NCBI GenBank assembly: GCA_044226015.1
Contig: JBGAHS010000002.1
Coordinates: forward strand, 256,001-320,000
Origin: Candidatus Obscuribacteraceae bacterium
Lineage (GTDB): Bacteria; Cyanobacteriota; Vampirovibrionia; Obscuribacterales; Obscuribacteraceae
Length of the DNA: 64,000 nucleotides
Direction of reading: 5' to 3'
The translations under genes were made by a program, and so were the position numbers. Positions 25,934-32,488 of this stretch are shown one piece after another. The notes under the pieces are model-generated. The model was not told the origin of the DNA, did no database searches, and was given only the letters and a program-made list of their open reading frames with translations. Numbering within the stretch: position 1 is the stretch's first letter; every line of letters begins with the position of its first letter.

Positions 25934-26704
25934 TTAGTGGTTTGAACTGCTAATTCTCACACGTGCAAGCTCAAGCACTTTTTGGCAGACCTCATCTTGA
26001 GTGAACTGATCAGTATCAATCAAAACCGCATCATCAGCCTTCTTCAAAGGTGAAACAGCTCGGGTCGAATCAAGATGGTCACGCTGAATAATGTCAGCAG
26101 TAATTGTTGCAAGATCGGCAGTTTGCCCCATTTCTTCCATATCTTTCAAACGGCGCTTAGCTCTAACTTCAGGACTTGCTGTAAGAAAAATCTTTAGCTC
26201 AGCGCTCGGCAACACAACAGTTCCGATGTCACGTCCATCCATAACAACTCCGCCCTGATTGGCAAGCTTTTGCTGTTTCTCAACCAACAACTGTCGCACA
26301 CCGCCAATCGCAGACACCTGGCTCACAAACCTGGTGATAATGCGCGAACGCACAATAAAGCTCAAATCAGCGCCATTCACAATAACTCGCACCTTACCCT
26401 GTGAACTATCATCAGGCGGAAGAAGCTCAATGTTGGCATTTCTAACGAGATCAATAACCTTGAATTGGTCATGTACTACGTCGACTTTTTTCTCCAGCGC
26501 GATCCAAGTTGCTGCGCGGTACATAGCCCCGGTATCTATATATAGATAACCAAGCTCGTGAGCGACTTTCTTCGCCAGAGTCGATTTGCCAGCTCCGGCT
26601 GGTCCGTCAATGGCGATGGATATTCGCTTTTCGGAGCCGTTTGGCTCTGCATCTGCCATAAGTCCGTTCCCAAGAAGAGTTTCCATGCCGGCACCTTCAT
26701 CCAA
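25934..26704 (-). CDS. cmk: Cytidylate kinase
   Basis: IAIDGPAGAGKST, DTGAMYRA and VMDGRDIGTVVLP motifs. The start may be downstream of 26704. Confidence 0.96.
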   Translation of the reverse strand: MDEGAGMETLLGNGLMADAEPNGSEKRISIAIDGPAGAGKSTLAKKVAHELGYLYIDTGAMYRAATWIALEKKVDVVHDQFKVIDLVRNANIELLPPDDSSQGKVRVIVNGADLSFIVRSRIITRFVSQVSAIGGVRQLLVEKQQKLANQGGVVMDGRDIGTVVLPSAELKIFLTASPEVRAKRRLKDMEEMGQTADLATITADIIQRDHLDSTRAVSPLKKADDAVLIDTDQFTQDEVCQKVLELARVRISSSNH

Positions 26705-26804: not shown

Positions 26805-27647
26805 TTAATTCAAGCCAAGCGCAGAAAGAAAAGTTTGTGTAGTATCTTTCAGTACTTTTTGCCAATTCTGATCTTTGGGCGCTGGAAGCGCACGAAGCTT
26901 GTTCAGCGTTGAGCGTTGCTCTTCGGGAGTGTGAACGTATTCAGGAATCATGCTGGATTTTTCTGGAACGAAAAAGTCTGTGGAAGCCGCAGTGTCCGCA
27001 TGTGTAACGTGGGGATTGTTGAAGAGTGGCTCGACGACATTCCACTGAGTTATGGGCGCAGCGGCAGGTGCAGCAGGCACAACAGGCATCACAGGCTTAC
27101 GAATGCGACTTTTCGGAATCGGCATGGGCAATTCAAATCGCGGTCTGGGTGGAGCAAAGCCAGGCTCTGTTCCAAAAATTTTGTCGAGCAAGGCACGTTC
27201 ATCGAACATCAGATTGCCGCTTTCAGGCAATGCTGGATAAAGTTCTAGAATTCTGTGCAACGAGATGAACAACGAGCGATCTAATTCTTCGAACTCCTCA
27301 GGGCTGAGGTCGAGAAAGGCGAAGCTTCCCTCTCGTAGCTCGATCATGGCGCGCACAGCTTGATAGGCATCGCAACCTTCAATGCTGTCTGAGCTTGAAG
27401 CAGCAACGATGTGACTGCACTCAGCTATCAAAATTTTCCCGTGAAAACTGTCACCAGGACTGGAAATTCGCAAGAGCCCATATTGAACGTTAGGCACGTC
27501 GACGATTGACTGAAGCACATCTGCCATGCCCCAAGAACGCGATAAAGACCCTTCAAAAACTACGTCCACTTTACAAGCCCGAGTTACGGCGAACACATGA
27601 GTATTGTCTACGTAATACGGGCAGGATGCAAGTGGGAAAACCCGCAA
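26805..27647 (-). CDS. DUF4388/PATAN-like domain protein with a Pro-rich tail
   Basis: LQSI...GLLRISS...GKILI....IVAA...EG.DA...MIELREGSFAF pattern. Confidence 0.6.
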   Translation of the reverse strand: MRVFPLASCPYYVDNTHVFAVTRACKVDVVFEGSLSRSWGMADVLQSIVDVPNVQYGLLRISSPGDSFHGKILIAECSHIVAASSSDSIEGCDAYQAVRAMIELREGSFAFLDLSPEEFEELDRSLFISLHRILELYPALPESGNLMFDERALLDKIFGTEPGFAPPRPRFELPMPIPKSRIRKPVMPVVPAAPAAAPITQWNVVEPLFNNPHVTHADTAASTDFFVPEKSSMIPEYVHTPEEQRSTLNKLRALPAPKDQNWQKVLKDTTQTFLSALGLN

Positions 27648-27725: not shown

Positions 27726-28076
27726 TCAGGCTTTCGGGACGGAACTGCGTCGCGCCATGAATCCTTTCAGCCAATTTTCGAAACTCGGTAGCGTTGGCAC
27801 GCCTTTTGCAGCGTCAGCTTGAGCATCTTCAAGGCTCATGCCCTGGTCTATATTAGCGATTATGCGCAGAACTTCGCCATCTTCCGGAAAGCGCCCATTT
27901 GCTTTCTTCGAATAAATCAAGCGACCATTGTGTTCTACTTCGAATACACCACCAGATGATTGGAAGAGTTTTGCACTTTCGTCTAATTGAGTTTCTATTT
28001 CAGCCGCCAACCTGGCAGCTCTTGCGCGGTAGCCTCAAGCTCCGCAGTAAGTAATCGTGAAAGGGATGTTTCCCAT
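27726..28076 (-). CDS. SelT/SelW/SelH (Rdx) family selenoprotein, Sec at codon 14
   Basis: RBS AAGGAG, ATG at 28076, MGNIPFTITYCGA-TGA(28035-28037)-GYRARAARLAAEI...SGGVFEV..NGRLIYSKK..GRFPE. 116 aa with read-through. Confidence 0.92.
28002..28020 (-). promoter_or_regulatory. Putative bacterial SECIS element
   Basis: AGCUGCCA-GGU-UGGCGGCU stem-loop beginning 15 nt after the UGA. Confidence 0.75.
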
Positions 28077-28124
28077 GAGTATCTCCTTTAGTGCTGGAAC
28101 AGCGGTGTTAAACGCTTCTCACTT

Positions 28125-28877
28125 CTAGCTTCTGTTGAAGCCAAAAATGCGCTTCCACCATGGCATGTTCAGAACTAGATTATACTCACGTTTCAATTCT
28201 TCCAACTCTTTGCGGGTTAGTTCTAAATCAGATTTGGCTCTTGCACTCTCGCTTGCGCTGCTTTCAAGTAAACGCATCGAGCCCTGCATTTGGGAAATGA
28301 TGCGAAGATCTTCCATGTGCAGGCGGCGCTCTTCGCTCAAAGTTTTTTGAGTAGAAAGCAGTTCACGTAACAAATGCTCAACCTCTTCGCTACGATCAAT
28401 GACTATGGTGGGTTGATCATAGTTATGCTCAGAACGAGCAAGACTGCGCTTCCCAGAGCTTTCTGCTGTACCACGCAAAAACTCAGTTAGGTCTGGCATC
28501 TCAAAACTGCTTTGGGTATCTTGCGGCGTATAGCTGCCACCGCGAAGGCGAAAACCTGCTGGAGGTGTAAGCCGCCATTCTTCACCTTTTTCGGTTCTCA
28601 CCTTTTTGGCAGCCCAGCCTTCCGGCAGTTTATTACCCCAACGTCCGAGCAAACTGCGTTCGAGTGCGCGCACACTCTTTCCTAGTATCGCAGCCGCCTC
28701 CGAAATATTGAAGATTGGGCGAGGCGCTTCCTGAGCTGCCGCCGAAGGACTGGTCTCTGAATCAGAACCATTTGATTCAGTCGCTGCAGCGGAAATTTCT
28801 CCATTCAAGAAATCAGAGCTGTCACCAAAGGTGGTGACATATTCAATACTGTTTTCTGCGGGATCTTTCGTAGACAT
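28125..28877 (-). CDS. HTH, coiled-coil and C-terminal amphipathic helix protein
   Basis: FNISEAAAILGKSVRALER HTH-like segment, long coiled coil, PWWKRIFGF terminus. Confidence 0.7.
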   Translation of the reverse strand: MSTKDPAENSIEYVTTFGDSSDFLNGEISAAATESNGSDSETSPSAAAQEAPRPIFNISEAAAILGKSVRALERSLLGRWGNKLPEGWAAKKVRTEKGEEWRLTPPAGFRLRGGSYTPQDTQSSFEMPDLTEFLRGTAESSGKRSLARSEHNYDQPTIVIDRSEEVEHLLRELLSTQKTLSEERRLHMEDLRIISQMQGSMRLLESSASESARAKSDLELTRKELEELKREYNLVLNMPWWKRIFGFNRS

Positions 28878-31930: not shown

Positions 31931-32488
31931 TTGTCAAGGCGAGGCCCAAAAATGACCTTACGACTAATATTGACGTCCCTGATACTAAGTCTTTCAATCG
32001 CGACCAACATGGTCGTGGCAAAAGACGATACTGCAAAAGCGAGCAAAACAAGCACTGCTACAGCGAAAAGCAGCAAAGGAGCAAAAATGAGCGGACCAAA
32101 GGTAGTTAAATCAGACGAAGATTGGAAAAAGCAGCTCACACCAATGCAATACCAGGTCACCCGGGAAAAGGGAACCGAAAGGGCGTTTACAGGTGAGTTC
32201 TGGAACAACCATAAAAACGGTAAATACTACTGCATATGCTGTGGCGCCGAGCTATTCACATCGGACAACAAGTTCGATTCTGGTTGCGGCTGGCCAAGTT
32301 TCTACAAAACAGCAGAAGGTGCGCCTGTTGCCGAGCATCACGACAGCACCCATGGAATGGAACGAACTGAAGTTGTTTGCGACCACTGCGGCGCGCATCT
32401 TGGACACGTCTTCCCTGACGGACCTCATCCTACAGGCATGCGCTATTGCATCAACTCTGCTTCGTTGAAGTTCGAAGAGAAGAAATAG
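31931..32488 (+). CDS. msrB: Peptide-methionine (R)-S-oxide reductase with a signal peptide
   Basis: GTERAFTG, CxxC Zn pairs, [21 protein letters not shown] and RYCINSASL motifs. Confidence 0.96.

Follow-up and report, generated by a model that had tools for sequence, protein, structure and literature searches.

A predicted Rdx/SelW-family selenoprotein in a lineage-specific long variant, and the selenocysteine machinery of its non-photosynthetic cyanobacterial relatives

The Rdx/SelW-like gene and its in-frame UGA

The minus strand of the 64,000-nt stretch of DNA analysed here (the window) carries a gene for an Rdx/SelW-like protein whose reading frame meets a TGA triplet at codon 14 (Table 1). 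Codons 8-20 read ITYCGA-TGA-GYRARA, giving the motif C-G-A-U once the TGA is read through; past it the frame ends at a TGA stop (27728-27726) and encloses a 94-aa open reading frame started by TTG (27726-28010). The first-pass annotation had described a ribosome-binding site with an ATG at 28076 and the continuity of this motif with the 94-aa frame, and both are borne out on the minus strand, the former by AAAGGAG at 28089-28083. Its assignment of the product to the CxxU proteins of the Rdx/SelW family is upheld by the motif and by two profiles: the read-through protein scores 71.5 bits against Pfam Rdx (PF10262; truncated form 42.6, cut-off 22.6) and 62 bits against TIGR02174 (CXXU_selWTH; truncated form 37, cut-off 34.2). 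The best NCBIfam score, 84.2 bits to the SelTWH_Campy equivalog NF041051, falls under the 88-bit cut-off of that model and leaves the protein outside it; the protein also differs from it in lineage and in having an extra tail.

Table 1. Features of the Rdx locus (window coordinates), and selenocysteine genes and other candidate selenoproteins of the source genome (contig coordinates)
Feature	Position	Strand	Basis or remark
Rdx/SelW-like gene (116 aa when the UGA is read through)	27726..28076	-	sequence, profiles, predicted fold
Shine-Dalgarno-like AAAGGAG, 6 nt 5' of ATG (28076)	28083..28089	-	sequence
Cys11, first residue of CxxU motif	28044..28046	-	Cys in 25/25 homologous loci
TGA codon 14, in frame, predicted selenocysteine	28035..28037	-	TGA in 22/25 loci; CxxU in 15/16 other phylum matches
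SECIS-like hairpin, 8-bp stem, GGU loop, -12.6 kcal/mol	28002..28020	-	covariation and recoding
C-terminal extension, residues 78-116, two predicted helices	27729..27845	-	last helix 99-111: conserved F-x-x-W-L-x-x-F, mostly basic tail
Upstream neighbour, 250 aa, predicted HTH and coiled coil	28125..28877	-	beside 12/18 long-form loci
Downstream neighbour, 280-aa hypothetical protein	26805..27647	-	beside 7/18 long-form loci
cmk (cytidylate kinase)	25934..26704	-	downstream of long-form gene in 17/18 loci
selA	C3:259184-260518		505.7 bits
selB	C11:827067-828944		329.3 bits
selD	C9:631362-632288		366.7 bits; yedF next
tRNA-Sec	C11:1300243-1300337		64.7 bits, UCA anticodon loop, long variable arm
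TPR-thioredoxin, W-U-G-P-C, hydrophobic N-terminal segment	G000:C8:208770-209462 (L097:1271-1963), UGA C8:209217	+	TGA in 14/30 loci, G-loop hairpin
ArsC family selenoprotein NF041106, U-N-T-C, GUU-loop hairpin	G000:C11:320773-321159 (L098:1774-2160), UGA C11:321099	-	TGA in 13/22 loci
Candidate new selenoprotein family, ~570 aa here	G000:C1:666100-667854 (L099:2101-3852), TGA 666310	+	Cys orthologues, covarying hairpin

Homologous loci (n = 25) came from the source genome and 40 relatives, which as kin are not independent. A query with the source protein found a homologue in 19/24 genomes of the same family and in 0/16 other relatives, and a contig scan yielded just 6 distant loci. Codon 14 is TGA at 22 loci, TGC at two (L037 and L046, paralogues in genome G024) and AGC at one (G023), and the UGA is retained in 18 of the 19 same-family genomes having a homologue. 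Alignment at this codon, a check proposed beforehand, thus finds UGA dominant rather than TGC or TGT throughout, and with TGA kept at 22 loci across 45-75% protein identity a sequencing error is very unlikely. As is characteristic of bacterial selenoproteins, the in-frame UGA aligns with Cys, both in the two TGC paralogues and in the CxxC form of genome G112. The sole exception among the same-family genomes, G023 (92% complete), has Ser at codon 14 and gave no selA, selB or tRNA-Sec match. It is one of the three family genomes at least 90% complete and lacking selA (with G001 and G011) in which neither a selB or tRNA-Sec match nor a UGA form of any protein tested was found; G005 (70% complete) has the UGA and a tRNA-Sec, but no selA, selB or selD match.

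The hairpin 3' of the UGA, its stem starting 14 nt and its loop 22 nt past that codon, covaries among relatives and fits the bacterial SECIS model set out in part of PMC13188914 (loop G, spacing, 8 bp, energy). Across the 22 Sec loci 97.2% of stem cells are paired, 3/8 pairs are changed on both sides (all three wobble-to-wobble) and 0/500 shuffles score as high, while synonymous recoding (n = 300) gives a mean of 120 and a maximum of 131 paired cells against the 171/176 observed; these counts indicate strength and are not p-values, since related genomes are not independent. At the Sec loci no loop codon other than AGT or AGG occurs, and the hairpin is missing at this place in the three non-Sec copies, which lay outside the covariation alignment. 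For the window sequence alone, 79/5000 recodings retain all pairs and the loop G. Folding energy by itself fails to tell the hairpin apart from shuffled sequences (z -0.75). Hairpins of this type follow only 284 of the 325,903 genomic TGA triplets, a frequency close to that seen for TAA and TAG.

Since the genome has all four Sec genes (see below) and relatives retain both codon and hairpin, the internal UGA is likely a selenocysteine codon at the predicted redox site. Were it a true stop, the product would be a 94-aa protein without the redox motif, begun at the TTG at 28010 as publicly annotated, and the 32 best public protein matches (P0002-P0033, including GenBank MBX9570641.1 and MBX9690027.1) do all begin 3' of the UGA. 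These records, however, are gene-caller products, and we consider termination here very improbable: the 13 codons 5' of the UGA are conserved in frame behind the Shine-Dalgarno-like site and ATG, codon 14 is TAA or TAG in 0/25 loci and TGC in two, and the truncated form misses strand 1 of the fold in the AlphaFold model. A reading of UGA as Trp or Cys without selenium, through a changed code or leaky read-through, would agree with the Cys found at this codon in two paralogues, but it is slighter still in probability, as TGA is also the terminal stop of the Rdx gene and of several homologues, selA, selB and selD have no internal TGA, and the hairpin tracks the TGA.

Decoding of UGA 14 as selenocysteine by the genome's own system, in an Rdx/SelW-family protein with a thiol-redox role, is in our judgement very probable. 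The predicted selenoprotein is well supported and belongs to a known family, of which it is a long variant specific to its lineage; the public records truncated ahead of the active site are corrected accordingly. By analogy with established bacterial Sec decoding, SelB-GTP-Sec-tRNA would bind the G-loop hairpin and deliver Sec at the UGA. The thioredoxin-like fold suggests that the selenolate of Sec14 would attack an oxidised thiol or peroxide, after which Cys11 would resolve the intermediate as a selenenylsulfide and a cellular reductant would reset the enzyme.

Fold, C-terminal tail and gene neighbourhood

The AlphaFold model (mean pLDDT 81.8) shows an Rdx fold, extended at the C-terminus by two further helices. 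Strand 6-11 is followed by C11-G-A-U14 and helix 17-31, which places the CxxU motif behind the opening strand of a thioredoxin-like fold. Foldseek finds the same fold in the Cys-type Rdx proteins Atu0228 (2fa8) and 2obk, in human MIEN1 (2ljk) and in mouse SelW (2npb), with E values from 1e-5, for its best matches, the SelW-related 2fa8 and 2obk, to 3e-3; these four proteins are 22-36% identical to the Rdx protein and none matches its tail. MIEN1, the best PDB match by sequence, has CxxC where the Rdx protein has CxxU, and its own tail is prenylated for membrane binding (described in portions of PMC6738349 and PMC4536591).

The family tables of PMC9312934 and PMC13188914 count SELENOW-like CxxU proteins among the predicted selenoproteins of bacteria, and the Rdx protein itself is therefore not new. 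It resembles those proteins (PF10262, TIGR02174) in its CxxU, G-x-F-E and S-K...R-F-P motifs, its fold and a SECIS within the coding sequence, and differs from them in some 40 extra C-terminal residues, seen in family f1 (that of the source genome) alone, and in a fixed place upstream of cmk. At 17 of the 18 long-form loci the gene is followed by cmk; the remaining locus sits at the end of its contig. None of the three neighbours is found at the six short forms or at L046. Those six short forms carry Sec without the tail, and G023 keeps the tail with a CxxS motif. The neighbours (cmk and two hypothetical genes) give no functional clue, and a promoter and terminator scan at the locus stayed at chance level.

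The tail had been described as an extension of ~40 aa ending in an amphipathic helix; the conserved tail and its predicted helix stand, while the amphipathicity proves moderate, with a hydrophobic moment of 0.40 for helix 99-111 against 0.56-0.67 for helices inside the fold. This helix is modelled at pLDDT 55-67, behind a linker (residues 93-97) below 50. Our preferred reading, to which we would give about an even chance, is that the tail serves as a membrane anchor, the conserved helix perhaps docking the enzyme at the inner membrane. Bacterial membrane-targeting helices, for example that of MinD, are of a comparable terminal amphipathic type, and the aromatic face, the mostly basic end, the low-confidence linker and the terminal position all resemble such helices. 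They speak against a soluble helix that folds back, dimerises or binds a partner, an alternative that would leave the protein a selenoprotein and whose chance we put a little short of even. In its favour, the moment over 39 long-form rows (0.37-0.66, with the Trp-containing pattern, aromatic face and mostly basic end kept) does not exceed that of structural helices, CxxC and CxxS variants retain the tail, and the long form is confined to one operon-like context upstream of cmk.

Two further proteins of the window may be recorded here. The product of the gene directly upstream of Rdx (28125-28877, minus strand) ends in P-W-W-K-R-I-F-G, a second candidate membrane-binding helix, and 4 kb from the Rdx gene (31931-32488, plus strand) lies an MsrB gene (SelR domain), free of internal UGA codons, whose product has a hydrophobic N-terminus.

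Selenocysteine machinery and other candidate selenoproteins

The first-pass annotation had supposed that selA, selB, selC and selD would be present and had proposed a genome search, and in the source genome (8.19 Mb, 92% complete) all four were found, unlinked to one another (Table 1). The SelD active site is Cys, and the 24 selD matches in 41 genomes include none with an internal stop; neither selU nor yqeB scored above cut-off, so that the presence of SelD is not explained by those two traits. In the same family selA occurs in 19/24 genomes, selB in 15/24 (at E 1e-65, with one more over the cut-off), selD in 20 and tRNA-Sec in 19. Six genomes outside the order gave weak tRNA-Sec matches (44-50 bits), which were left out of the selC count since 5/14 control genomes also yield a score above the cut-off of the model.

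The selA gene lies ~3 kb from an EF-Tu-like gene (G000:C3:256022-260518), as it does in G009 and G012; since these three genomes belong to different genera, the arrangement hints that selA has long been resident in the family. Three genomes of family f2 (G025-G027) have selA, selB, selD and tRNA-Sec, yet a search for Rdx, TPR-thioredoxin and ArsC found none of the three there in a UGA form. In family f3, G028 and G034 (L092, L093, L115) have a divergent selA, that of G034 beside a weak selB-like gene, with no selD match at E 1e-50 and only weak tRNA-Sec matches; their Sec system may be read as decaying or separately acquired.

Judged from sequence, the source genome likely encodes four selenoproteins: Rdx, a TPR-thioredoxin, an ArsC-like protein and a 570-aa protein with a U-x-x-x-x-C motif. 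Four is a minimum, since the search would overlook a Sec close to the C-terminus or one lacking a Cys partner. Loose UGA scans gave 33, 55 and 43 rows, from which six regions were taken, four read and three found conserved; one candidate, L100, was dropped as off-frame. A filter devised after these genes had been seen (an ATG ahead of the site, 60 or more coding codons after it, Cys at -3, +3 or +5, and a G-loop hairpin) passes 4/720 TGA sites, 0/550 TAA sites and 0/449 TAG sites. The TPR-thioredoxin is possibly exported, and Cys paralogues of it coexist in the source genome.

Selenoproteomes are reported to include FdhA or SelD in every case (PMC1794560), and by comparison neither was found as a selenoprotein in the source genome: no Sec-FdhA turned up, and its four molybdopterin oxidoreductase matches, like its 12 AhpC-TSA matches, have no internal stop. 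A selenoproteome is thus apparently maintained without FdhA or Sec-SelD.

The fourth protein, reached by way of the Rdx gene, is a candidate selenoprotein family outside all Pfam and NCBIfam models; a PDB profile search gave nothing below E 0.15, and a weak Atlas lead (0.80) points to a thioredoxin-like middle domain. The portions of the 119-family table of PMC13188914 that were examined have a UxxxxU entry (TsoB) and no UxxxxC family. Members are about 470-590 aa long, with G-U-G-x-x-x-C-x-P-G-G-G near the N-terminus, a conserved A-C-P C-terminus and an AGGU-loop hairpin 20 nt 3' of the UGA. Matches occur in 34/104 family genomes, and the 30 loci compared comprise 20 close orthologues with U-x-x-x-x-C, three with C-x-x-x-x-C, five distant paralogues with M-G-U-G-P-x-x-C, one distant Cys paralogue and one without the motif. 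Covariation was assessed on 16 of the 20 (two with a one-codon insertion, one duplicate and one without the hairpin were left out): 85.7% of the stem is paired, 0/500 shuffles are as high, 96/112 cells are paired where recoded sequences reach at most 84, and all 16 have GGT as their loop codon. Pro-Pro-Gly-Gly-Gly does form hairpins readily, however, and 1618/5000 single-sequence recodings pass. The distant paralogues L245, L246, L248, L249 and L250, of at least 700 aa, start M-G-TGA-G-P-x-x-C-P and lack a canonical hairpin; they may use a non-standard SECIS, or their UGA may be read in some other way.

Selenocysteine decoding across the Cyanobacteriota

Close homologues of Rdx and SelA bear the name Ca. 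Obscuribacterales and the source genome has no photosystem II reaction-centre genes, which together identify it as a non-photosynthetic member of the Cyanobacteriota, in agreement with the sister lineage of cyanobacteria that had been supposed; we infer that family f1 is the Obscuribacteraceae and its class the Vampirovibrionia. The phylum was sampled through 251 genomes (the source and 250 others), with photosystem II reaction-centre genes in 100/251. Among the 250 others selA is found in 19, in 0/100 photosynthetic genomes and in 0/104 genomes of the small-genome family f6, which belongs to the class of the source. The selA-positive sample genomes fall outside that class, and part of them cluster with proteins that bear the name Ca. 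Sericytochromatia. TIGR02174 matches occur in 16 other phylum genomes, 15 of them CxxU, all selA-positive and tail-less, and one CxxC, selA-negative and photosynthetic; in this sample selA and CxxU Rdx are confined to genomes without photosystem II genes.

Cyanobacteria have been stated to be without Sec decoding (PMC1794560 and PMC9312934), which fits the 100 sampled photosystem II genomes and fails for two non-photosynthetic sister groups. The part of BSepDB (PMC13326102) consulted includes, in its Table S1, 18 Vampirovibrionia and 8 Sericytochromatia genomes that go unnamed in its text, and such proteins may already be among its online entries. SelA is already labelled in NCBI records for both Ca. 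Obscuribacterales and Ca. Sericytochromatia; no treatment of Sec in the two lineages was found in the literature searched, including the available parts of PMC4040986, PMC4451040, PMC6349859, PMC7203096 and PMC11823831. The Rdx gene alone is modest news, most of the interest being carried by the phylum-wide pattern and the candidate family, which point to an overlooked use of selenium in the non-photosynthetic relatives of cyanobacteria.

It is plausible, from these sequence comparisons, that the Sec machinery was present in the ancestor of the phylum and lost in oxygenic cyanobacteria, and no firmer statement is warranted because the outgroups of the SelA trees are thin (Bacillota, Pseudomonadota and few others). 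In a 48-row SelA tree, made without redundant rows (an earlier one was made without fragment L134), the order of the source (f1 with f2) groups as a single clade (100/100), adjoined by f9, another family of the phylum (90/90), and all 25 phylum rows lie on one side of a branch (support 49/95). We tentatively propose, at rather less than even confidence, that the common ancestor of all Cyanobacteriota already decoded Sec, with this CxxU Rdx as a client, that the ability disappeared on the branch toward oxygenic photosynthesis, and that the Obscuribacterales would have kept it for thiol-redox proteins without Sec-FdhA or Sec-SelD, including the undescribed ~570-aa U-x-x-x-x-C family. Equally, the machinery may have entered the Obscuribacterales by horizontal transfer rather than by descent from the ancestor of the phylum, which we hold to be possible though somewhat doubtful. 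Transfer would accord with the unsettled deep SelA branches (bootstrap 49), with the position of f3 and f15 among Bacillota and Fusobacteriota in both quick SelA trees, with a selA-selB linkage seen in the other class and not in the family of the source, and with the lack of selA in the 104 f6 genomes of the same class. The f1-f2 clade with f9 adjoining it argues against transfer, as do the placement of all 25 phylum rows in the best careful tree and the occurrence in both non-photosynthetic groups of one and the same CxxU Rdx, whose hairpin is similarly placed. Under ancestral presence, the loss could be assigned to the branch on which oxygenic photosynthesis emerged, as Sec is absent in the photosynthetic members sampled and present in the sister groups, and that branch would offer a testable case for oxygen selecting against Sec.

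Three SelA proteins labelled Drouetiella, Planktothrix and Stenomitos (P0113, P0160, P0173) fall inside non-photosynthetic clades; they likely come from mislabelled MAGs, which could cause false reports of Sec in oxygenic cyanobacteria.
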